DNA from: Minisyncoccia bacterium | GTDB lineage: Bacteria; Patescibacteriota; Minisyncoccia; SW-4-49-11 | NCBI GenBank assembly: GCA_044341565.1 | Contig: JBIIRM010000008.1 | Span: forward strand, 1-47,688 | Length of the DNA stretch: 47,688 bases | Direction of reading: 5' to 3' | In this document: piece by piece, positions 10,086 to 47,512 of the stretch | How the letters are laid out: each line of letters starts with the position of its first letter | How positions within the stretch are numbered: the first letter of the stretch is position 1 | The notes under the pieces: model-generated | The model's database searches: none | Seen by the model: only the letters and a program-made list of their open reading frames with translations | Told to the model about the DNA's origin: nothing | Made by a program: the position numbers and the translations under genes

Positions 10086-10416
10086 TATCCAAGGAGAATG
10101 GTAATCGCGCATATCCATATATATGGTGAGTGAGGAAAGTCTGGACACCTATTACTTTGTAATAAATGATAGTGGGTAATACCCACCATTGAGCTTGCTC
10201 AATCGGGATAGTATCGCAGAAACAAGACATTTGAGTATATCTCATCTAAGGTGAAAAGAGATAAACCCTATCAGGTGCAAGGCCGTGCTTTTCTGTATTG
10301 AAAAGAGTGCCGCCAAGAATATGCTGGTAACAGTATATCAAGATAAATGATTACCTATGTATATTTGCTTGCAAGTATGCATAACAGAATCCAGCTTATA
10401 TTCTTCTTGGATAATT
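10086..10416 (+). ncRNA. rnpB: RNase P RNA (bacterial type A-like)
   Basis: Conserved CR-I-like GAGGAAAGTCTGGAC at 10132-10146 and CR-V-like ACAGAATCCAGCTTAT at 10384-10399. Internal GGGTAATACCCACC and AGATAAATGATTACC resemble universal rnpB elements. The P1 helix forms between TATCCAAGGAGAAT (10086-10099) and ATTCTTCTTGGATA (10400-10413) with one G-U pair. A TATAAT at 10074-10079 puts a transcription start near 10086. Confidence 0.85.
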
Positions 10417-17384: not shown

Positions 17385-17453
17385 ATGGGATATTAGTTCT
17401 ACAGACAAAAACTATAGCATAAAATAGCAGTTTTGTCAATTTCTGATATTATT

Positions 17454-17956
17454 TTTCCACCCCTTTCCCTGCTACCCCTCAATTTATCTCCCGTAGGGAG
17501 AGAGGGGAATTAGCTAAGTCCACACCCGTCGACTTTGTCGACACCCTCGCCGGCGAGGCCTGCCTGCGGTAGGCAGGGACAGTTTTATTGTCCTCCCTTG
17601 GGGGAGCTTTGGTTCCTCCTATATTTGTTTAGGAGGGGGTGCCCGTAATAGACTGAAGGTCTGGGAAAGGGGTCGGGAAAACAGAAGTTTTCCCGTGGAG
17701 GAAGGTTGGGAAACCGTGAGGTTTCACAGGAGCAAATCCCATTTGCGACGGGGGAGGGAGGATAGAGTTTAAGTTTGTATTTTATCCACCCCGTCCAGCA
17801 AAGCTGTCCACCCCTCAAGAGGGGAATATATACAATGTACTGTCCTAAAAATTCCCCTCATGGGTTGTGAGTAGATAGGAGTCAGTATATAACAAAGTGC
17901 TTTGTCCGAAAAATTCCCCTCTTGAGGGGTGCCGTCGCTAGACGGCGGGGTGGAAA
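17454..17956 (+). repeat. G+C-rich mosaic stem-loop cassette, copy A (the largest), bounded by a 10-nt inverted repeat
   Basis: TTTCCACCCC (17454-17463) and GGGGTGGAAA (17947-17956). At least 11 short perfect GC-rich hairpins are present. The backbone is shared with 38577-38778, 42131-42206 and 47131-47305. Confidence 0.85.
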
Positions 17957-17959
17957 GTA

Positions 17960-18913
17960 TTACAATAACTCTCTATTCACAAAATACACCCCTGCATATC
18001 CATTCGCAAAGCTATCAGCAGTAATAGTATTTTTCCCCTCTACAGTTAATTCTTTGACCGCAATATTACCTATTTTTGTCCCAATAATCAGATTGTGACT
18101 GACAGAATCTAATTGCCAATATCCTGGCTTAAGTTTAATATCAGATATATGCTCAAGATCTAATCTATCCAATACTACTTTTTTGTCCGTATTGAGATAG
18201 GTATATACTTGTGGCCAAATAGTATAAGCTCTATAGGCATTATTAATGTCCTCGGCTGATTGACTCTCCCAATCAATAAGCCCATCCATTTTTTGAACCA
18301 TTTTCACAAAACTAGCTTTAGCATCATCTTGAACCCAGGGAGTAATTTCTCCATTCATAAAAGGAATAAGATTTTGTCTCAATATATCAGCCGCAACAGT
18401 GATAATTTTTGCCTCAAGTTCAATATAGGTATCGGTAGGAGATATAGTGATTTCCTCTTGAGCAATAATAGGTCCATGATCCATCAAATGATCAATTTCC
18501 ATCAAACTAACAGCAGTACTCTTGTCTCCATTACGGAGGCTCGCCTGTATAGGAGATGGCCCACGATACTGAGGTAGTCTTGAAGGATGAATATTCAACA
18601 CTCGATGAGGCATAATATCTAATATAGCTTGCGGAATAATTTTACCATAGGCAATAATTAGCCAAATATCAGCAGATAATCCTCGCAATAATTCACTAGT
18701 CTCAGGAGCTTTGAGAGAATGAGGACTATACACGGGAATAGAATGACTTTCCCCAAATACTTTGAGAGGACTAGGAGTTAATATTCTTTTACGCCCCTGC
18801 GGAGTATCAGGAGTAGTAATAATAGCCACAATATCAGCCCAATCGAGTAGAGACTCAGCAATAGCAACCGTAAGCTGAGGAGTACCCCAAACTACAATAC
18901 GGGGTTTAGACAT
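17960..18913 (-). CDS. fmt: methionyl-tRNA formyltransferase
   Basis: PRIVVWGTPQLTV...TTPDTPQGRKR...LNIHPSRLPQYRGPSPIQASLRNGDKSTAVSLMEI...MDHGPIIAQ. The start is probably ATG 18913 (MSKPRIV), which overlaps the def stop by 8 nt. The alternative start is 18925. Confidence 0.93.
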   Translation of the reverse strand: MSKPRIVVWGTPQLTVAIAESLLDWADIVAIITTPDTPQGRKRILTPSPLKVFGESHSIPVYSPHSLKAPETSELLRGLSADIWLIIAYGKIIPQAILDIMPHRVLNIHPSRLPQYRGPSPIQASLRNGDKSTAVSLMEIDHLMDHGPIIAQEEITISPTDTYIELEAKIITVAADILRQNLIPFMNGEITPWVQDDAKASFVKMVQKMDGLIDWESQSAEDINNAYRAYTIWPQVYTYLNTDKKVVLDRLDLEHISDIKLKPGYWQLDSVSHNLIIGTKIGNIAVKELTVEGKNTITADSFANGYAGVYFVNRELL

Positions 18914-30061: not shown

Positions 30062-31408
30062 ATGGCAGGGAATAATTCTCTTGATTCATTTACCAAAAAT
30101 CGCAACGTAATTATTATTGCTGGTGTCGCTATATTAGCTATTGTTATATTGATGCTTGGTAATGCGCTTGGATTCAAAATTGGAGGTGAGAAAAAAGTAC
30201 AAAAAGCAAATTTGGTAGTATGGGGAGTCTGGGATGAAAGTGAGACAATGACGAAATTGGGAAGTGATTTTCGTAAAATATATCCTAATGTAAGTATAGA
30301 ATATCGTAAATTCAAGCCACAAGATTATGAGACAGAACTTATTAATGCTTTAGCTGAGGGACGAGGTCCAGATATATTGGCAATGGAGAGAACTTGGCTT
30401 GGTAAACATAAGAATAAGTTAGCCCCAATGCCAGAAGAAATTATGACACTCAAAGAGTATCAAGATACTTTTGTAGATGTGGTTAATCAAGATTTTATTG
30501 ATGAGGGTAAAATATATGGATTCTCTCTATACACCGATACTTTAGCATTATTATATAACAAAGATGCTTTTAATGATGCTGGAATTGCAAATCCACCAGT
30601 AACTTGGGAAGAATTACAAAGTATAGTACCCAAATTAACTAAAATAGATCAATTTGGTGAGATTAAACAGGCGGGAGTTGCATTAGGTACAGGAGATAAT
30701 ATAAATCGTTCACCAGATGTTTTGATGGCATTAATGTTACAGTCTGGAGCTCAATTTACTGACCCTAAAGATACTAGTAGAATTACTTTTTCTCAAAGTA
30801 AAAATGTCAATGGACAAAATATAAATCCTGCTCAATTATCTTTAGCTTATTATACCGATTTTGCTAATCCTCGAAAAGGAGTATATACCTGGAATTCAAC
30901 CTTAAATAATTCAATAGATGCTTTTTATGAAAGAGAAGTTGCTATGATATTTGGATATTCATATCAGGTAGAAGCAATTAAAGCAAAAGCCCCAAGACTT
31001 AATTTTGCAGTAGCTCCTCTCCCTCAGGTATCTACAGATTCTGGCCTTGCTAATTTTGCAAATTATTGGGGATATGGAGTAAGTGGTCAATCTAAATACC
31101 CAAAAGAAGCCTTTGCATTCCTCAAATCAGCCACTGAAAAGGAAAATGCTCAAGAGTATTTCTTGAAAACCAAGCGCCCAACAGCCAGAAGAGATTTAGT
31201 AGATACACAATCACAAGACATTGATTATGGAGTATTTGTAAAACAAATATTACAAGCTAAAACCTGGAGACAACCCGATAATAATTCAGTAGATAAAATA
31301 TTTATCAATGCTATTAATGGAGTAAATTCAGGATTACTTGACTATAGTAAAGCTATTTCGCAAGCTCAAACAGAAATACAGACATTAGCTGATAATGTGA
31401 AAAAATGA
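30062..31408 (+). CDS. ABC-transporter-type extracellular solute-binding protein (family 1, sugar-like), N-terminally membrane-anchored
   Basis: TM anchor VIIIAGVAILAIVILML, then VVWGVWDESE...YPNVSIEYRKFKPQDYETELINALAEGRGPDILAM...YNKDAF, typical of SBP_bac_1. No permease or ATPase gene is adjacent. Confidence 0.8.
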   Translation: MAGNNSLDSFTKNRNVIIIAGVAILAIVILMLGNALGFKIGGEKKVQKANLVVWGVWDESETMTKLGSDFRKIYPNVSIEYRKFKPQDYETELINALAEGRGPDILAMERTWLGKHKNKLAPMPEEIMTLKEYQDTFVDVVNQDFIDEGKIYGFSLYTDTLALLYNKDAFNDAGIANPPVTWEELQSIVPKLTKIDQFGEIKQAGVALGTGDNINRSPDVLMALMLQSGAQFTDPKDTSRITFSQSKNVNGQNINPAQLSLAYYTDFANPRKGVYTWNSTLNNSIDAFYEREVAMIFGYSYQVEAIKAKAPRLNFAVAPLPQVSTDSGLANFANYWGYGVSGQSKYPKEAFAFLKSATEKENAQEYFLKTKRPTARRDLVDTQSQDIDYGVFVKQILQAKTWRQPDNNSVDKIFINAINGVNSGLLDYSKAISQAQTEIQTLADNVKK

Positions 31409-32730
31409 AATATATAAAGTTCAGTATAGTTTTTGGTATAATATTCTTAGTAGTTTCATTTTTTAGTATTAACTATACTAATGCACAGAGTGCAGATGGA
31501 GCTTGTAGTGCAGGGGCAACATCATTAGAGCAAAACTGTACTTTTCAAAATGGAAGCTCTCGTTTAAATGGAAAATGCCAGGTTAAAGATAAAAATAATC
31601 CAGGTTTAGGATTAACTTGTCGTACTAGCTTAGGATCATCCTGCTCAGGTGATACTTGTCAAAATGGATTAGCCTGTATTAATCAGGTTTGTTCCAGTCC
31701 AAGAGGGGCTAAAACTCAAGGTCAATCTTGTTCAGGGAATGGAAATGAATGTATTGCAGGTCTTGAATGTAGAAATTTTATATGTACAAAAGAAGCTGCC
31801 ATTACTGGTGGAGGGTCTGGGCAAACTGGAGGTGGTCAAGTCGGTACCCCTGGAGGCTCAACAGGGGCAGAAACAGGCCTTGTTAAATGTGGAGTGAGTC
31901 GAGATTGTACTATTTGTGATATATTTATCTTAATTCGAGATATCTTTAATTTTGCTTTAGGGCTACTAGCCTCACTCGCGGTATTAAGTGTTGTTATTGG
32001 TGGGGTCTATGTGTTGACTTCAGCAGGTAATCCTGGAGCGGTAAGTACAGGATATGGCATTATTACCAATGCAGTAATTGGACTATTACTCGTAATGGCA
32101 AGCTTTCTCTTATTTAGTTTCCTTCTTGTGGGGCTTGGATTTCAAGAACAAAATTTCTCAGCTGTACTTACTTTTCAACCAGGTAAAGTATTCGAGGTAA
32201 AATGTGATAATGCTAGTACTTTTAATGATAATGGATCAAATGGAGGAGGGTCTGCTGTACTGGGTAATGGTGGGAGTAACTCATCAACTATAAGTTGTGC
32301 GAGTTTAAATGATTCGGTTAAGGCGGATTTAAATAATGCTAGTTCTCAGACGGGTGTTCCTTCTGAACTATTGGCTGGAATTATGCAAAGAGAATGTCCT
32401 GCAGCCTTTAATAATGCTAATGCTTGTCCAAATGAAAATGGCTCTGGAGCAGCTGGAGCAGGTCAATTTTTACAAAGTAGCTGGAATGAGCTGGGATGTA
32501 GTGGAAGTAGAACGAATCGAAGAGATGCCCTTGTTTGTATGGGGAAACATTTAAAACGGTATAATAAATGTTCTAGTCAATGTAATGGATATTCTAATTT
32601 TTCATCCAGAGCTTGTTCTGATTGTGTGGCAGGAGATTATTGTGGTGCATGTTCAGGTTCATCAGCTTGTGGAGGTAATTATTGTGATGGGGTGTGGAGT
32701 AACTATCAAAAATTTAAAACATGTAAATAA
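31405..32730 (+). CDS. secreted Cys-rich domain, T4SS-pilin-like TM hairpin and C-terminal Cys-rich lytic-transglycosylase-like domain (fusion)
   Basis: Signal peptide MKYIKFSIVFGIIFLVVSFFSINYTNA. Cys-rich repeats follow the pattern C.G..C..GL.C.N..C. The pilin core is FNFALGLLASLAVLSVVIGGVYVLTSAGNPGAVSTGYGIITNAVIGLLLVMASFLLF (about 31897-32155). The SLT-like motifs are ELLAGIMQRECP...GAAGAGQFLQSSW (about 32302-32730). The ATG overlaps the SBP stop (ATGA). Confidence 0.7.
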   Translation: MKYIKFSIVFGIIFLVVSFFSINYTNAQSADGACSAGATSLEQNCTFQNGSSRLNGKCQVKDKNNPGLGLTCRTSLGSSCSGDTCQNGLACINQVCSSPRGAKTQGQSCSGNGNECIAGLECRNFICTKEAAITGGGSGQTGGGQVGTPGGSTGAETGLVKCGVSRDCTICDIFILIRDIFNFALGLLASLAVLSVVIGGVYVLTSAGNPGAVSTGYGIITNAVIGLLLVMASFLLFSFLLVGLGFQEQNFSAVLTFQPGKVFEVKCDNASTFNDNGSNGGGSAVLGNGGSNSSTISCASLNDSVKADLNNASSQTGVPSELLAGIMQRECPAAFNNANACPNENGSGAAGAGQFLQSSWNELGCSGSRTNRRDALVCMGKHLKRYNKCSSQCNGYSNFSSRACSDCVAGDYCGACSGSSACGGNYCDGVWSNYQKFKTCK

Positions 32731-32734
32731 TAAT

Positions 32735-33841
32735 ATGAATAAAATCTTCAGTCTATTTTTACTAATAGCATCTTTCTATTCTATTTCTCCAGTATATGCA
32801 GATACTAGTATATACTCAAGTTTCTTATATCCAAGTTTTGCTGTAAATAATGAAATTTTATATTTTGATCAATATGCAGGAGCTATTGTGAAACAAAATG
32901 TTATTACTGGTGAGAAGTCAGAGATATTTGATTTAATACCTTCTGCTACTAACTTAGTATCAATTTCTCCTGAACAATCTAAAATATTACTTTATCCTCC
33001 TAATATATCATTTCCAAAATATCAAGCACCATTTTTTGATAGTTCAAGAAAATCTCCCGATAATCAATGGTGGGTATATGATTTTAATACAACAAATAAA
33101 ATACTACTAGATGATAAAATTAATTTAGTTGGCTGGTATTCTGATAATGAAATTATATATGTATTTAATAATAAAGATATCACAGTTGCCCCAACCAATG
33201 ACCTATCTAAATTTAATATTCTATACTCTAATATACCATCTAATGTGGATATTAATAAACAAATTATAGCAAATGATAACCATCAAATAATTCCATTAGT
33301 TGATGGTTATCTTGTGGGAAATAAGAAAAACTTTGTATATCAAAAAAGTACTAATTATCAAATTTCAGCCAATCCAAAATTGAATTATTTTTTGGAATAT
33401 AATAATAGTCAGATAAAAGTTTTTGATTGGGATAGTAAGCAAGTAGGTAGTATTATTAATATCAGTAACAGGAAAGCTTTGTTACTGAATAATGATACTA
33501 TAGCTATATTGGCTACAAATGGTAATTTGATACAATATAATTTACAAGGGCAGGAGCAATCAAATGTATCATTAAATCCAATAGTTACTGATATATATTC
33601 GGTTGATCAATCTGGAAATGAACTATTAATTAATCAAAATAATCAAATACGTACTTATAATTTATTAAAAAAAGAGCAGGGAACCATCCTATTATCCACC
33701 AATACTCCTACTCCTAATACTGACACAAATTCAGAGACAGAACAATCCAACACATTAGGGAATATTGCTATTTTAATAGGAGGAATAGTATTCCTTGCTG
33801 GGGGACTGGGGCTATTTATTTGGAAATTAAGAAAAAGATGA
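32735..33841 (+). CDS. secreted beta-propeller-like protein with a C-terminal TM anchor
   Basis: The true start ATG 32735 gives the signal peptide MNKIFSLFLLIASFYSISPVYA. The body is Asn/Ile-rich and beta-strand-like with PD40/TolB-like strings (ISPEQSKILLY, WWVYDFNT). The C-terminal anchor is IAILIGGIVFLAGGLGLFIWKLRKR. Confidence 0.6.
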   Translation: MNKIFSLFLLIASFYSISPVYADTSIYSSFLYPSFAVNNEILYFDQYAGAIVKQNVITGEKSEIFDLIPSATNLVSISPEQSKILLYPPNISFPKYQAPFFDSSRKSPDNQWWVYDFNTTNKILLDDKINLVGWYSDNEIIYVFNNKDITVAPTNDLSKFNILYSNIPSNVDINKQIIANDNHQIIPLVDGYLVGNKKNFVYQKSTNYQISANPKLNYFLEYNNSQIKVFDWDSKQVGSIINISNRKALLLNNDTIAILATNGNLIQYNLQGQEQSNVSLNPIVTDIYSVDQSGNELLINQNNQIRTYNLLKKEQGTILLSTNTPTPNTDTNSETEQSNTLGNIAILIGGIVFLAGGLGLFIWKLRKR

Positions 33842-33871
33842 TATAATTAAAAATAATTAAATACAGATACT

Positions 33872-34711
33872 ATGAAATTAATCATATCTACAGCATTTGG
33901 AATTGTCTTTGCACTAGTATTCTTTAGTAATTCTAATATAACACTTGCTCAATGTGGAAGTGGTCCAAGCTGTACAGGGAATTTTGTTTGTGTGAACGCA
34001 GATGGTACTCCTAAATGTTTGCTAAATCAGGTTAGTAATAATGGTTTATGTGAGGGCGACTCTTCTGTGAAATGTTCAGCAAATCAAGCTTGTATTCAAA
34101 ATAATGCAACAGAAATTGTATGTGCCCCTTTAGCGGGATCATCAGCTAATACAAATTTACCAGGTTCTGGAAGTACAACAACTTGTCCAACCTGTAAATC
34201 TGGTGAAACATGTATTAAGAGTGCAGCAGGACCACTCGTATGTAGATCCGCCGCTACAAATTGTACTCCTGCTTGTACAACAGGTAAGGTGTGTGTTAAA
34301 GCAACGCCAACAGCAACTACTGGAACTTGTGTAGATAATGCGCCTACTCAAGCTGCTGGAGGAGCTGGTGGTAATGGTGCTGGAGGGAATGGATCTTCAG
34401 GAGGAAGTGGTGGTGGCTTATTAGAAGGTCTCAATGCTTTTGGTAGTGCAGATTCTGGACTTAATACAGAGGGAACTCTCATTGGGTTTATTTCTAATAT
34501 TATTCGTTGGATATTAGGACTTCTTGGAACTGTGTTCTTTGTAATCATAGTTTTACAAGGGTATCTTTATATGACATCTTCAGGAGATGCGAGTAAAACA
34601 GCAGCAGCTACGGGGGCTATTACTAATGCAGTAATAGGACTACTGATTATTATGGGAGCTTTCCTCATTACTAATTTTGTGACAAGTGGTTTGATTGCCG
34701 CTGGGTCTTAA
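33872..34711 (+). CDS. T4SS-pilin-like protein, paralogue 1, with a long Cys-rich N-terminal extension and Gly-rich linker
   Basis: Signal peptide MKLIISTAFGIVFALVFFSNSNITLA, then about 20 Cys in C..G..C-type repeats and the linker AGGAGGNGAGGNGSSGGSGGG. The pilin core is IIRWILGLLGTVFFVIIVLQGYLYMTSSGDASKTAAATGAITNAVIGLLIIMGAFLITNF. Confidence 0.8.
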   Translation: MKLIISTAFGIVFALVFFSNSNITLAQCGSGPSCTGNFVCVNADGTPKCLLNQVSNNGLCEGDSSVKCSANQACIQNNATEIVCAPLAGSSANTNLPGSGSTTTCPTCKSGETCIKSAAGPLVCRSAATNCTPACTTGKVCVKATPTATTGTCVDNAPTQAAGGAGGNGAGGNGSSGGSGGGLLEGLNAFGSADSGLNTEGTLIGFISNIIRWILGLLGTVFFVIIVLQGYLYMTSSGDASKTAAATGAITNAVIGLLIIMGAFLITNFVTSGLIAAGS

Positions 34712-34721
34712 TATCTTATAT

Positions 34722-35069
34722 ATGATAGAAGCATTTATATCCAATTTCATCATAGTAACAGCTAAAGCCCAGGAGACATCGCCTCCTCCTATATTAGCTA
34801 TACCTACAGGAACAGGAGTGGGGGAGCAAGGAGATCTGTTTACTTTTGTGTCAGCTATTGTGCAATGGGGATTGGGATTAATAGGGATAGTATTATTTGT
34901 ACTTATACTCTTTTCTGGATTCCAATATGCAACAGCAGGGGGCGACTCTAAAAAAACTGAAGAAGCTATTAGTAGAATTACTTCTGCAGTAATCGGAGTA
35001 TTCATTGTAGGGGTGGCTTTTATACTATCCAATGCAGTATTAGGATTTGTTTTTAGTCTAGGATCTTAA
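34722..35069 (+). CDS. T4SS-pilin-like protein (TrbC/VirB2-type two-TM hairpin), paralogue 2
   Basis: The core is IVQWGLGLIGIVLFVLILFSGFQYATAGGDSKKTEEAISRITSAVIGVFIVGVAFILSNAVLGFVF. The start is trimmed to ATG 34722, after the upstream stop at 34711. Confidence 0.8.
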   Translation: MIEAFISNFIIVTAKAQETSPPPILAIPTGTGVGEQGDLFTFVSAIVQWGLGLIGIVLFVLILFSGFQYATAGGDSKKTEEAISRITSAVIGVFIVGVAFILSNAVLGFVFSLGS

Positions 35070-35097
35070 TATACTGACTTATCCACAATAGTATCAC

Positions 35098-35126
35098 TTG
35101 CATAGTAATATAAGATATGATAGTAT
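35098..35126 (+). promoter_or_regulatory. candidate promoter for pilin paralogue 3
   Basis: TTGCAT (35098-35103), a 17-nt spacer, then TAGTAT (35121-35126) in the 100-bp A+T-rich spacer. Confidence 0.25.
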
Positions 35127-35169
35127 AAAAACATAGAACATATTATTCAATAATTATTAAGATATTCTT

Positions 35170-35553
35170 ATGAATACTTCCCAGATAAAATCAATAGCAA
35201 CAAGAGCATTATTACCTGTATTAGTATTAGCTCCTACTTTAGCTGGAGCTGCAACTCCCATAAAAGATACTAGAGTCATAGGTGAAATACCTCAAGTAGC
35301 TGGTACTAATCAATCTACTGACCTTGTGGCTACAGTACAAGTGGTTATTCAATGGGCATTAGGATTTATCGGAATTGTAATATTCATTATTTTCTTATTT
35401 GCAGGATTTGAATATGCAACAGCAGGAGGAGATGAAGGAAAAGCAAAAACTGCACAGTCTCGAATGATTAACGCGGTAATTGGACTTATTATTATATTCT
35501 TTGCCTTTGTAGCTTCAAATGCAATATTGTCATTCGTATTCCCAGGAAATTAA
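35170..35553 (+). CDS. T4SS-pilin-like protein, paralogue 3
   Basis: Signal-like N-terminus ...LVLAPTLAGAATP. The core is VIQWALGFIGIVIFIIFLFAGFEYATAGGDEGKAKTAQSRMINAVIGLIIIFFAFVASNAILSFVFP. Confidence 0.85.
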   Translation: MNTSQIKSIATRALLPVLVLAPTLAGAATPIKDTRVIGEIPQVAGTNQSTDLVATVQVVIQWALGFIGIVIFIIFLFAGFEYATAGGDEGKAKTAQSRMINAVIGLIIIFFAFVASNAILSFVFPGN

Positions 35554-35573
35554 TCAAATTGATAGATACTATG

Positions 35574-35610
35574 AAACAATAAAAAGGGATTATATCCCTT
35601 TTTATTGTTT
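35574..35610 (+). terminator. rho-independent terminator-like hairpin after pilin paralogue 3
   Basis: AAACAATAAAAAGGGAT-tat-ATCCCTTTTTATTGTTT is a 17-bp perfect stem whose 3' arm carries a T-run. Confidence 0.65.
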
Positions 35611-35697
35611 AGAGAATACATATTCAAATAGTATAATCTTCTTGTCAGATAATAGAATACTTGATATACTTGTAATATATAGAATAGTAAAATAGAT

Positions 35698-36114
35698 ATG
35701 AGAGTCTTATTGATTATAATAGCTTTATTGATGGGGGTATTTGTATTAAGTTCTAATATATCTCTAGCTCAAAGAGCCCCTGATGCCACTCTCCCTGGTC
35801 CAGGAACAATCCCAATTAATACCGGAATAGCTGAGGGACCAAGCTTGATAGAAACAGTGTCTATTATTATAAGGTGGATATTAGGATTTATTGGAATTAT
35901 AATATTTATTATATTCCTATATGCAGGATTTGAATATGCAACAGCAGGAGGGGATGAGAAGCAGGCTGAATCAGCTCAAAAAAGAATGGTAAATGCAATC
36001 ATAGGACTGATTATTATATTCTTTGCATTTGTATTGTCGAATGCAGTATTAAGCTTTGTATTTCCTCCAGACGATACAGTAGATGATCCTAATATGCCAT
36101 TAAATGTAAATTAG
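35698..36114 (+). CDS. T4SS-pilin-like protein, paralogue 4
   Basis: Signal peptide MRVLLIIIALLMGVFVLSSNISLA. The core is IIRWILGFIGIIIFIIFLYAGFEYATAGGDEKQAESAQKRMVNAIIGLIIIFFAFVLSNAVLSFVFP. Confidence 0.85.
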   Translation: MRVLLIIIALLMGVFVLSSNISLAQRAPDATLPGPGTIPINTGIAEGPSLIETVSIIIRWILGFIGIIIFIIFLYAGFEYATAGGDEKQAESAQKRMVNAIIGLIIIFFAFVLSNAVLSFVFPPDDTVDDPNMPLNVN

Positions 36115-36115
36115 T

Positions 36116-36556
36116 ATGAAATATCTATCAATAGTAATAATTGCAATAATGATACTAATGAGTAATCCTTTTATTAGCTTTGCAGGTACCCCATCAGGGG
36201 GAGGAACTACTCCAGCTACGGGTGGTACTCCATCAGGGGGAGGAACTACTCCAGCTACGGGTGGTACTCCCACAACCCCAACTGACAATACTTCTGCTCA
36301 AAGTGTAGGATTTGTGAATCCAATTCGATTTAATTCTATCCCTGAGCTTATAGCAGGTATTATCAATGCTCTCTTGGGTATACTCGGAGCTATTACTGTG
36401 GCAATATTAGTGATGTCAGGATTTAAATATATGACAGCTTCTAATCCAGGAGCAGTAGGGCAAGCTTTAGATGGTATTAGGAATGCAATTGTAGGACTTA
36501 TGATTATTATGGGGGCTTTTCTCATCACACAATATATTATATCTGCTTTGGTGTAA
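36116..36556 (+). CDS. T4SS-pilin-like protein, paralogue 5, with a tandem Thr/Pro/Gly repeat
   Basis: Signal-like MKYLSIVIIAIMILMSNPFISFA, then (GTPSGGGTTPATG)x2. The core is IINALLGILGAITVAILVMSGFKYMTASNPGAVGQALDGIRNAIVGLMIIMGAFLITQY. Confidence 0.85.
   Translation: MKYLSIVIIAIMILMSNPFISFAGTPSGGGTTPATGGTPSGGGTTPATGGTPTTPTDNTSAQSVGFVNPIRFNSIPELIAGIINALLGILGAITVAILVMSGFKYMTASNPGAVGQALDGIRNAIVGLMIIMGAFLITQYIISALV
36185..36262 (+). repeat. two tandem copies of a 39-bp coding repeat
   Basis: GGTACCCCATCAGGGGGAGGAACTACTCCAGCTACGGGT (36185-36223) is repeated at 36224-36262 with 2 substitutions. Each copy encodes GTPSGGGTTPATG, and a partial third unit (GTPTTPT) follows. Confidence 0.9.
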
Positions 36557-37323: not shown

Positions 37324-37395
37324 GATAAAATGAACGAATTACTTTCTATATATAGCATATTTTAGGTAAAATGTCAATATTTATAGACAATAAAA

Positions 37396-38460: not shown

Positions 38461-38576
38461 TTTGTGAATGAACGAGGGACTTCTTATTCATAACACAAAA
38501 TCATAAATTTGTCAACTCATAATAACAGGTGTATATACATAAAATTATTCCGACTCAGGTCAATGAGTACTTATAA

Positions 38577-38778
38577 TGTCCTCCCTTGGGGGAGGTGGGG
38601 AAAGGGGTCGGGAAAACGAGAGGTTTCACAGGAGCAAATTTTATTTGCGACGGAGGAGGATAATTCAAAAAGTCCACACCCACCGCTAACGCGGTACCCC
38701 CTCGCCAGCGAGTGACAGATTTAATATCCTCCCCCGGGGGAGGATAAAATAGTACAGGCGACTGAAAGGTCGCCCCTA
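38577..38778 (+). repeat. G+C-rich mosaic stem-loop cassette, copy B
   Basis: A 17-nt run GTCCTCCCTTGGGGGAG (38577-38593) is identical to 17590-17606. GGGAAAGGGGTCGGGAAAAC, GAGCAAAT-ttt-ATTTGCGACG (38631-38651) and AAGTCCACACCC (38669-38680) are all shared with copy A. A 22-nt perfect palindrome lies at 38724-38745. Confidence 0.85.
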
Positions 38779-42099: not shown

Positions 42100-42130
42100 G
42101 GTATATACTCACTATAGGTAATCCTCCTCC

Positions 42131-42206
42131 GTTCCTCCTATATATAATAGGAGGAACACCTCCCCCCAAGGGAGGACAGAAATTTTGTCCCTCGCCAGCG
42201 AGGGAC
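42131..42206 (-). repeat. G+C-rich mosaic stem-loop cassette, copy C (condensed, inverted relative to copy A)
   Basis: GTTCCTCCT-n9-AGGAGGAAC (42131-42157). CTCCCCCCAAGGGAGGACAGAAATTTTGTCCC (42160-42191) matches the reverse complement of 17576-17606 with one extra C and a changed loop. GTCCCTCGC-ca-GCGAGGGAC lies at 42187-42206. Confidence 0.8.
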
Positions 42207-46563: not shown

Positions 46564-46635
46564 GACAGAAAGTCGAGTTTACAAAAATAACCATACCATA
46601 TTTTTGCAAAAATGTCAATATGTATAAACAATTTA

Positions 46636-46890: not shown

Positions 46891-46974
46891 AAAATAATTT
46901 AGTATATATGTATAGTAAACCGATATATAACTCTAGTCAATAAATCAAATATCTGATAAAATAATCAAGATAAT

Positions 46975-47060
46975 GGAGAGTTCGCATAGTTGGTCTAGTG
47001 CGCACGCTTGGAAAGCGTGTATACCGCAAGGTATCAAGAGTTCGAATCTCTTACTCTCCG
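46975..47060 (+). tRNA. tRNA-Ser (anticodon GGA), class II with a long variable arm
   Basis: Acceptor GGAGAGT/ACTCTCC plus discriminator G. D-arm GCA/TGC with a GG loop. Anticodon stem CACGC/GCGTG with loop TTGGAAA. Variable arm ATACC-gcaa-GGTAT. T-arm AAGAG-TTCGAAT-CTCTT. No CCA is encoded. Confidence 0.93.
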
Positions 47061-47063
47061 CAA

Positions 47064-47101
47064 AAATTAAAAATAGGGGTTTTTGCCCCTATTTTTAATT
47101 T
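47064..47101 (+). terminator. long hairpin terminator after tRNA-Ser
   Basis: AAATTAAAAATAGGGG-tttttg-CCCCTATTTTTAATTT is a 16-bp perfect stem. Confidence 0.7.
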
Positions 47102-47130
47102 CCGTGAGTTAGTAAAGAGAAATTCGAACT

Positions 47131-47305
47131 CGGGAAGGGGTCGGGAAACGGAAGTTTCCTGTGGCGGAAGTAATCAATACCCCTAGATAGGAAGGCAATG
47201 AGGAGCTTGCTCCGAATGTCGGAAACCGTGGGTGTCCGAGATGGGGTTGTAGGGGTATTGAGGGAACTGAGGGGGTTTCAAAGAGCAAATCCCATTTGCG
47301 ACGAG
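47131..47305 (+). repeat. G+C-rich mosaic stem-loop cassette, copy D
   Basis: CGGGAAGGGGTCGGGAAACGGAAGTTTCCTGTGGCGGAAG (47131-47170) is colinear with 17662-17704. GGAAACCGTGGGTGTCC is present. The 21-nt core GAGCAAATCCCATTTGCGACG (47283-47303) is identical to 17730-17750. More hairpins follow up to about 47413. Confidence 0.85.
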
Positions 47306-47325
47306 TTCGGAATCTCTTACTATCT
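47303..47325 (+). repeat. degenerate direct repeat of the tRNA-Ser 3' end (att-like)
   Basis: GAGTTCGGAATCTCTTACTATCT compared with GAGTTCGAATCTCTTACTCTCC in the tRNA (47038-47059): one inserted G and two substitutions near the 3' end. Confidence 0.75.
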
Positions 47326-47512
47326 ATATTCCGACACTCGGGAATAAATCCCTCGCTGCCTTCCTGCACGGGGGATTTTGCCTTCATACATACGATGTAT
47401 GAAATCCTGAAGGAGTTATTTAGATTCAAACTTCATTTTTAATTGGACTAAATAAATTTTAGTTGGTATTCTATTTATTAGGTGGTATATCAGTTAATCT
47501 AAAAATAATTTT

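Follow-up and report, generated by a model that had tools for sequence, protein, structure and literature searches.

The tRNA-Ser(GGA) locus and the repeat of its 3' end

The window analysed here, by which we mean the whole stretch of 47.7 kb, is low in G+C (~35%) and carries housekeeping genes (gyrA, gatB, enolase, metG and rpsL-rpsG-fusA), an AcrB-like pump, several type IV secretion pilin paralogues and a class A RNase P RNA. Its sole tRNA gene, as identified by ARAGORN and Rfam, is that of tRNA-Ser(GGA) (Table 1), and the block upstream of this gene is also kept in three related loci (L058, L017 and L127). The 3' end of the gene (GAGTTCGAATCTCTTACTCTCC, positions 47038-47059) is repeated downstream as GAGTTCGGAATCTCTTACTATC(T) at positions 47303-47324/5, the downstream copy having an additional G in the T-loop, which falls between positions 57 and 58, and two substitutions in the acceptor part. 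The repeat gives a local alignment score of 17. When the 622 nt downstream of the tRNA gene were shuffled 2000 times with dinucleotides preserved, the scores averaged 7.6 (sd 1.0) and did not exceed 13; when 298 other segments of the window were compared with the tRNA 3' end, the top score was 12. Chance, given the local composition, is all but excluded by the shuffles as the source of this repeat. A conserved 20-nt core (AGCAAATCCCATTTGCGACG, positions 47284-47303), which belongs to a family of G+C-rich cassettes and also occurs at positions 17731 and 38633 of the window, directly abuts the repeat at 47303. No credible gene is present in the 243 nt between the two tRNA-end copies; the two mechanical ORFs there are broken by the length differences (85 nt and 177/179 nt) between orthologous loci.

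Table 1. Features of the tRNA-Ser(GGA) locus, with positions in the 47.7-kb window
Feature	Position	Strand	Evidence
Promoter-like site of tRNA-Ser(GGA), TAGTCA-17-TAAAAT with TG	46934-46962	+	Consensus scan
tRNA-Ser(GGA) gene, intact; putative rebuilt target gene (attL side)	46975-47060/61	+	ARAGORN; Rfam RF00005, 55.3 bits
Left copy of the direct repeat, T-loop position 58 to discriminator, AATCTCTTACTCTCCG	47045-47060	+	
Terminator hairpin, cassette-borne, AAAAATTAAAAATAGGGG-ttttt-GCCCCTATTTTTAATTT	47062-47101	+	Homologous terminator at Ser-GGA, Ser-GCT and Ser-CGA loci
Left arm, tRNA-Ser 3' end copied in inverted orientation, with indels	47102-47131	+	Alignment score 12; folding
Body, 5' part: GGGAAGGGG, hairpin H1 (GGGAAAC-GGAA-GTTTCC) and linker	47132-47172	+	Kept in all D-type copies
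Nested 85-nt G+C-rich hairpin module	47173-47257	+	Absent from L017, L044 and L059; present in L105 (Ser-CGA) and L128
Body, 3' part: H2 (GGGAAC-TGAGG-GGTTTC), core hairpin H3 (GCAAAT-CCC-ATTTGC) and GAC	47258-47302	+	Family D4
Putative displaced, decaying 3' fragment of tRNA-Ser(GGA) (attR side)	47303-47325	+	Alignment; same layout in at least 15 loci
Module E, 5'-truncated copy ending in the inverted T-loop-like GATTCAAAC	47326-47431	+	96% identity to L058 4432-4536

The left arm of this cassette (copy D) matches the tRNA end less closely than the right copy does, its score being equalled by 7 of the 2000 shuffles. It is in register with the palindrome of the terminator, which it lengthens, so that positions 47038-47131 form a bulged hairpin of ~45 bp (DNA fold of -27.7 kcal/mol, z of -9.2). 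The arm ends exactly at the complement of the T-stem, its pairing tracks the type of T-stem, and it can also pair with the right-hand copy in an alternative fold that closes the whole cassette. The + strand of the cassette folds 18 kcal/mol better than the - strand, and the variation in H1 consists mostly of G-C to G-U changes on the + strand. Since the copies of the body are nearly identical, they show hardly any covariation, which says nothing for or against an RNA structure.

The orthologue of the window locus (L017) is without the nested module, and the net insertion of 265 nt in the window corresponds to 180 nt plus this 85-nt module, within which one Logan contig (L001) stops at a position equivalent to 47228. 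The contig of the window is contained in SRR27335585. Module E, which is seen only beside tRNA-Ser genes, is whole in L058 and L042, where it sits between tRNA and core, and its truncated copy in the window is likely a remnant of an older insertion that was pushed outward. The window copy as a whole appears to be partly decayed, with a mutated displaced fragment, a nested module inside and a truncated module adjoining it.

A sequence-only reading of this locus had claimed that the last 22 nt of the tRNA recur downstream with one inserted G and two substitutions, that the conserved core abuts the repeat and that the bracketed segment holds no credible ORF or integrase, and these three claims held. 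The further hairpins that it reported up to 47413 turned out to be part of the truncated module E, which reaches ~47431. It had missed the inverted copy at 47102-47131, the nested 85-nt module and the identity of module E.

Two classes of the cassette in related genomes

The public sequences closest to the window belong to MAGs labelled Paceibacteria, Parcubacteria, Minisyncoccia or, in one case, 'Saccharibacteria' (CAZPCB), the last of which (L058) is 94% identical over 4 kb beside the tRNA. A scan for the core, taking one genome per species, returned it repeatedly from a few Paceibacteria-type MAGs, one of which (JBIKVS) has at least 17 copies, and the same architecture is seen in independent assemblies from NCBI, JGI, ENA and Logan. 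A scan of metagenomes for the cassette returned 5 loci only, 2 of them being chance matches.

The copies fall into two classes. In the majority (class 1), GGGGAGGGTGGATA follows the core, and the copies are embedded in mosaics of other G+C-rich hairpins, away from tRNAs; those at 17.7 kb and 38.6 kb of the window are examples. In class 2, the core is followed by RGTTC..AATC and an acceptor strand, and each copy for which upstream sequence is available sits just 3' of a tRNA on the same strand, the orientation of the cassette being always that of the tRNA. The tail of a class-2 copy is the 3' end of whichever tRNA lies upstream, as observed in at least 15 Paceibacteria loci. The tRNAs concerned are Ser-GGA (the window, L017, L058 and L128), Ser-GCT (L042, L044, L107, L111, L115, L120, L122 and L124), Ser-CGA (L059 and L105) and, at L035 only, Gln. 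For example, the tail reads CTCTTACTCTCC at Ser-GGA, CCCTTTCTCTCC(GCCA) at Ser-GCT and CCCTGTCTGGCAA at Gln. Scores of the downstream repeat are 17-22 at the Paceibacteria tRNA-Ser and tRNA-Gln loci and 5-10 for 18 tRNAs of other identity at the same loci, while the upstream controls for all 45 scored tRNAs gave 6-14, the 14 arising beside a neighbouring tRNA-Ala and the remainder not exceeding 12. In two orthologous orphans (L030 and L112), the tRNA-like end is present and no tRNA precedes it.

The join between cassette and tRNA always lies at T-loop positions 57/58 and is marked by an extra or changed base, with the exception of L035, in which a second, related cassette joins in the anticodon loop with 41 nt duplicated. 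All displaced copies carry a 1-nt anomaly of the T-loop (TTCG followed by G, T or C and then AAT, or else TTCTAAT). The long variant found in the window is 98.8% identical in L128, at a Ser-GGA gene, and 94.2% identical in L105, at a Ser-CGA gene. The terminator and the left arm are homologous across cassettes at different tRNAs and are therefore parts of the unit. They vary among genomes, whereas the body is near-invariant even across genomes whose neighbouring proteins are 72-80% identical. The orthologous sites at which copies occur belong to genomes whose neighbouring proteins share 72-90% identity; many copies may therefore be old and maintained rather than actively mobile. The neighbours of the tRNA-linked copies (glutathione peroxidase, nitroreductase, NUDIX and similar proteins) are housekeeping genes and syntenic between genomes, and thus the insertion is really only ~0.2 kb long.

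Empty sites, rebuilt tRNA ends and tandem stacks

The tRNA-Ser(GCT) locus was fetched from graded relatives by means of the orthologues of the adjoining nitroreductase gene. Two pairs of colinear loci show a clean insertion, namely one of 177 nt in L120 as compared to the empty site of L123 (flanks 91% identical) and one of 179 nt in L124 as compared to the empty site of L125 (flanks 83% identical), and the tRNA-Ser(GCT) site of L121 is empty too. A similar retrieval using glutathione-peroxidase orthologues did not find a clean empty site at tRNA-Ser(GGA), where L126 and L127 are truncated variants and tandem variants also occur. Presence/absence polymorphism of the insertion is hence shown at the tRNA-Ser(GCT) gene. 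We note that empty sites might also stem from deletion between the repeats and need not be sites that were never occupied.

The occupied loci carry signs of an exchange of tRNA ends. In L120, the tRNA now ends in CTCTCCG-CCA and is followed by a terminator, homologous to that of the window, which the empty L123 lacks, and the right copy is followed by the trailer of L123 itself (cattataaaatc / cattataaaatcttaaaa). The tRNA of L042 has lost its encoded CCA, and both this CCA and the native terminator persist at the right copy. The right copy and trailer of L105 correspond to the present tRNA end of L059, and the tRNA of L105 has two compensatory changes in its T-stem, fitting a strand supplied by the cassette. 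In L124, a stretch of 60 nt running from the T-loop to the end of the terminator is perfectly duplicated on either side of the left arm and body. Overall, the duplication covers 16-60 nt of the tRNA end, sometimes including the terminator, and the blocks of identity are as short as 16-17 nt (L120). It is very likely that the cassette brings a new tRNA end while the old end and its trailer are displaced; for the window itself this is inferred by homology, and by analogy with L120 versus L123, L042 and L105 we infer that the segment AATCTCTTACTCTCCG (47045-47060) was supplied by the cassette.

Tandem arrays are present in L035, L059 and L128, wherein different bodies (D, E and X-type) each have their own tRNA fragment, and decay of the displaced fragments is seen in the window, L058 and L059.

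Search for a recombinase and for known RNA families

We found no integrase, transposase or reverse transcriptase in the 47.7-kb window. Neither beside any tRNA-linked copy nor among the genes that recur near cassettes, which by protein clustering encode housekeeping proteins, toxins and similar products (EF-G, Dus, KsgA, MazF, RhuM and NYN), were genes of these three kinds found, and a RAYT (HUH) transposase was likewise absent from the cassette neighbours, a search that covered the flanks and not whole genomes. The cassette is absent from IMG/VR (3 scans), from the INPHARED phages and from the PLSDB plasmids. Thus, an autonomous relative having the same att site and a recombinase was not found in 129 loci, IMG/VR or the phage and plasmid collections, whole genomes being outside the scan.

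Rfam 15 gave no match on the cassette at either gathering or permissive thresholds, families such as tmRNA, tRNA-like RNAs and ribozymes included, and the only matches above threshold in the window are to tRNA and RNase P. ARAGORN detected no tmRNA in the window, and a consensus scan found no promoter-like site for the cassette body.

Three other identities were considered and rejected. The arrangement GATTCGAA...GAC-GGGTTCG..CCA is reminiscent of a tmRNA or tRNA-like gene; neither ARAGORN nor Rfam matches it, the acceptor 5' strand is without a partner and the acceptor follows the adjoining tRNA. The reverse complement of the core resembles a CRISPR repeat or guide RNA (GTCGC...GAAAC), with the tRNA fragment as the 'guide'; there is no array and no cas or tnpB, and the empty-site pairs explain the fragment. 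The left arm does not qualify as a primer-binding site, as its complementarity to the last nucleotides of the tRNA is not conserved.

A gene-less cassette that may be inserted in trans

Based on these observations, we hypothesize that positions 47045-47310 are one copy of a Paceibacteria-specific group of gene-less integrative cassettes that target the T-loop region of tRNA-Ser genes and are moved in trans, a reading that we favour by a modest margin. Its parts differ in strength. The architecture of insertion and duplication, the identity of the target, the tandem arrays and the absence of an enzyme in cis are shown, as is the presence/absence polymorphism, and an insertion that regenerates the tRNA gene is very likely. 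A conservative chemistry carried out by a recombinase acting in trans finds at best slight favour over the alternatives, because no integrase-bearing relative was found, so that both the enzyme and the chemistry are only inferred, and neither excision nor recombination has been demonstrated. Also inferred only are the crossover point in the T-loop and the role of the left arm and body as recognition structures.

In the proposed scheme, the unit would comprise, in order, a replacement tRNA 3' end (the 3' half of the T-loop, the T-stem and the acceptor strand), the terminator, the inverted left arm, the three-hairpin body and a T-stem with the 5' half of the T-loop. Its T-arm-like site would recombine with the tRNA gene and splice the unit in. 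The tRNA would then be completed by the cassette's own 3' end and terminator, forming attL, and the original 3' end would be displaced to the far side as attR (47303-47325), where it would be free to decay. Since the unit encodes nothing, its movement would depend on an enzyme acting in trans, most probably a site-specific recombinase whose gene lies elsewhere in the genome or on a different element. Units inserted one after another at one site would form a stack in which the older ones are pushed outward, which would explain the truncated E module at 47326-47431. If excision is ongoing, one would expect an empty-site junction in which the T-loop of tRNA-Ser(GGA) is joined to CTATATTCC or to the downstream flank, and a circular junction of ATTTGCGACGAGTTCG(G)AATCTCTTACTCTCCGCAAAAATTAAAAATAGG.

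The sequence-only reading had interpreted the repeats as attL and attR of a miniature or decayed integrative element, perhaps mobilised in trans, and had thereby linked the hairpin family to mobility. Its main point is supported, with the enzyme inferred; the link to mobility held for the tRNA-linked copies, while the class-1 copies end differently and offer no such evidence. Its alternative of a remnant of a larger element is less likely than a complete small unit, because the ~180-nt unit recurs intact at many loci. As for the checks that it had proposed, empty sites in relatives were found at tRNA-Ser(GCT) (L123, L125 and L121) and were not clean at tRNA-Ser(GGA), a chance match was excluded, and the association with tRNAs in relatives was borne out by cassette tails that equal the 3' end of the upstream tRNA, the orphans L030 and L112 being without a tRNA. 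An integrase-bearing element with the same cassette was not found in the window, the loci, IMG/VR or the phage and plasmid records.

Certain features do not fit a simple picture, viz., the 1-nt anomaly of the T-loop, which is unexpected within a strictly identical crossover region, the inverted arm that is in register and the near-invariant three-hairpin body. These may point to a folded site that imitates the target, to an origin by cDNA or template switching, or to an added function of the body, each of which is no more than possible. A bolder reading is conceivable as well. The cassettes could be the smallest self-contained integrative elements, with a folded hairpin site, made up of the tRNA-end copy, the terminator and the inverted copy, that imitates the double-stranded tRNA-Ser 3' end; they may hijack a housekeeping recombinase (or reverse transcriptase) of the host, with the body as a recognition or loading module; and the larger family away from tRNAs might use the same trick at other targets. 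There is no evidence that the class-1 cassettes move like the tRNA-linked ones.

Alternative explanations

One alternative dispenses with a dedicated recombinase and supposes that a small circular or linear copy containing the tRNA-Ser 3' segment, derived by reverse transcription of a hybrid RNA or by DNA uptake, integrates through Campbell-type homologous recombination. In its support, the right duplication stops where a transcript would, namely at the 3' end of the tRNA or, in L124, with the last base of the terminator's U-tract, the left arm is as expected from snap-back copying off the terminator hairpin, and the variable extra base at 57/58 resembles a scar of template switching. Many tRNAs carry m1A58. 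The reverse transcriptase of the Neurospora retroplasmid initiates cDNA at tRNA 3' ends (PMC9925561), and integration via a hybrid cDNA and homologous recombination is reported to occur (Chiang et al. 1994). Against this, no locus has a reverse transcriptase, an identity of 16-17 nt (L120) is poor for RecA, and the left arm has several indels and is therefore old and not made anew at each event. The joins, moreover, lie at the two classical sublocations of tRNA-targeting integrases, the T-loop and the anticodon loop (Islander Table 1, PMC4383910); the attB of Ms6, for example, is in the T-loop (PMC1762012). We consider this alternative unlikely. A third view, which we also regard as improbable, is that the cassette is a functional, vertically inherited accessory of tRNA-Ser, an RNA or a terminator/processing module whose tRNA-like end arose by local duplication and was kept for a function such as processing, stability or protein binding. 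The near-invariance of the body between diverged genomes while the terminator and arm vary, the preference of the + strand in folding along with the G-C to G-U changes in H1, the constant orientation with the tRNA and the orthology of copies across species speak for it. It is opposed by the clean presence/absence in a colinear context, the occurrence of one variant at different tRNA genes, tandem stacks of unrelated bodies, the decay of displaced fragments, the terminator that parts the tRNA from the body, and the lack of a promoter-like site for the body and of an Rfam family. Function and mobility of the cassette are not mutually exclusive.

The left and right arms are imperfectly inverted copies of 22-24 nt, and their pairing closes the element by a long helix. 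They could alternatively be taken as the terminal inverted repeats of a MITE that is moved by a transposase and whose ends resemble a tRNA-Ser 3' end by accident and were homogenised with the neighbouring tRNA by gene conversion. However, there is no short target-site duplication, armed copies are confined to the sides of tRNA-Ser and tRNA-Gln genes (among ~60 cassette loci, none is an armed copy at a non-tRNA site with short duplications), the right arm is the exact local tRNA end even at Gln, the insertion supplies a new tRNA end and terminator, and no transposase was found, all of which make a MITE very unlikely. A chance similarity or an assembly artefact might be invoked given that T-arm sequences are partly palindromic and common and that the Logan contig breaks within the cassette, but both are practically ruled out by the score of 17 against a shuffle maximum of 13, by the low scores of other tRNAs in the same loci, by the empty-site pairs and by the same layout in independent assemblies.

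Significance and comparison with known systems

Integration into tRNA genes is a textbook property of integrase-bearing islands and prophages. On balance, and with due caution, we prefer to view the Paceibacteria cassette as a new, gene-less variant of the tRNA-targeting integrative elements in a poorly studied lineage. If true, integrative elements would have a new lower size limit, since a unit of ~180 nt that is complete, conserved and non-coding inserts with the same rebuilding of the target gene, forms tandem stacks and is found at several tRNA-Ser genes. A further implication would be that the very small, repeat-poor CPR genomes host an active or recently active family of mobile repeats, one that remodels the 3' ends of tRNAs (encoded CCA and terminator) and the neighbouring synteny. 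Were the partner enzyme to be found, the cassette would constitute a compact site-specific insertion system and also a natural marker for strain-level population studies of uncultured Paceibacteria.

The integron attC site and the attP(+) of CTX-phi fold to a hairpin that imitates a double-stranded target, CTX-phi using the host XerCD and integron cassettes using IntI. The cassette resembles them, in fold only, in its two inverted target-like copies, bulged stem, variable apical structure and lack of a recombinase of its own. Unlike them, it has no R-box (GTTRRRY/RYYYAAC) or dif-like site, the sequences GTTAGTA and TACTAAC misfitting the R-box consensus by eye; there is no evidence of a single-stranded stage, and no IntI is present in the window. 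With REP/BIME, the Rickettsia palindromic elements and the mitochondrial GC clusters and double-hairpin elements, the family shares G+C-rich intergenic hairpins in an AT-rich, reduced genome, nesting and mosaics, and it meets the REP/BIME-like criterion of multi-copy G+C-rich hairpin modules that are combined as intergenic mosaics. However, no repeat of the REP/BIME type is known to restore the end of a tRNA gene or to leave behind a displaced piece of one, and no RAYT-type transposase is seen near the cassettes.

The cassette has in common with CIMEs and mobilisable islands that att sites flank DNA without a recombinase, which is presumably moved in trans. Known examples of the CIME type span kilobases, and autonomous partners sharing their att sites have been identified, whereas no such partner is known for the Paceibacteria cassette. 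The likeness to Islander-type islands and prophages extends to an intact tRNA with a displaced 3' fragment in the same orientation, restoration of the gene by the element, joins in the T-stem/loop or anticodon loop, tandem arrays and empty sites in relatives. Those islands, however, are multi-kilobase elements with their own integrase, which Islander requires (PMC4383910), while the cassette is ~180 nt long and gene-less, and in the observed units of 177-265 nt, which are non-coding, an integrase inside the element is absent. The tycheposons of Prochlorococcus (bioRxiv 10.1101/2020.12.28.424599) similarly target tRNAs in a streamlined genome, with older insertions pushed outward and partial tRNAs left behind; they bear a tyrosine recombinase along with cargo genes, and what is left of decayed ones are pieces of larger elements, whereas the Paceibacteria units are complete, conserved and non-coding.

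Small cassette bodies at tRNA-Ser genes

A third small cassette body, type X (...GAGCCCGGTGTGAGTTTCCCTGAAAGGG...CTGTGAC), is present in two loci from related public assemblies (L059 1507-1700 and L128 50-90). Like the D and E bodies, type X terminates in a tRNA-Ser fragment, with the join at T-loop position 56/57 (GAC|CGAATC), and therefore the same site is used by several unrelated small bodies.

The cassette at tRNA-Ser(GGA) also occurs in truncated form. In L126 and L127 (2800-2960), it is cut off (AGCAAATCCCATT|catttcc) within the core, the conserved hairpin segment next to the displaced tRNA 3' end, and the truncated copies lie immediately upstream of the promoter of a glutathione peroxidase gene. 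A trace of the core still remains in L129 (2930-2960) despite the absence of a nearby tRNA. The nitroreductase locus of CAZPCB, a close relative of the window genome, lacks both tRNA-Ser(GCT) and its cassette (L119 3150-3250); all that survives of them, apart from the displaced terminator, is a 'gttcgaac' remnant.

Logan contig L001 (SRR27335585), the sole public contig with an identical AcrB-like protein, ends at window position 47228, within the module nested in cassette D, which is the unit 3' of tRNA-Ser(GGA). Either repeats or population heterogeneity at this locus account for the break.

On the 5' side, the promoter block of tRNA-Ser(GGA) ('ctctagtcaata...aaatatctga') is present twice in L127 (1040-1110 and 2660-2710) and also in L017, and the duplicated blocks bracket about 1.6 kb of DNA with three genes, one of them encoding a methyltransferase, which is missing in the window and in L058 (CAZPCB). 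The 5' side of this gene is a second rearrangement hot spot.

Class-1 cassettes and other features of the window

The class-1 copies, i.e., cassettes away from tRNAs, sit among the hairpin mosaics of the window, with core positions 17731 and 38633. One of them, at 38.6 kb, lies upstream of rpsL and is missing hairpin H1, a loss seen in comparison with the L082 orthologue. Five other genomes carry class-1 copies near fusA, and hence these cassettes were apparently inherited at orthologous positions.

Coordinates of additional features in the window
Feature	Position	Strand	Remarks
Mosaic arrays of G+C-rich hairpin modules	17450-17960, 38560-38770, 42110-42200		Intergenic DNA
Class A RNase P RNA	10089-10414	+	140 bits, 326 nt
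Type IV secretion pilin paralogue cluster	31405-36556		Internal DNA repeats, 487-522 nt spacing
39-nt tandem repeat	36185-36262		Within the interval of the pilin cluster
40-nt repeat pair	37352-37391, 46593-46632		85% identity

The RNase P RNA has shortened P12 and P3 regions. On its minus strand the 40-nt repeat carries a promoter-like site of the TTGACA type, and each copy is located upstream of a minus-strand gene, the two genes being unrelated.

Matches in archaea

The core pattern also matches loci of Micrarchaeota MAGs (L049, L061, L072, L075, L093 and L104), where AATGnnATTTGCGACG comes after the tRNA-Glu 3' end (..GGGAGCA), with a T-arm-like CTCGGGTTCGGAAAC about 10 nt further on. This arrangement may be a coincidence, or possibly a comparable tRNA-linked element exists in DPANN archaea.
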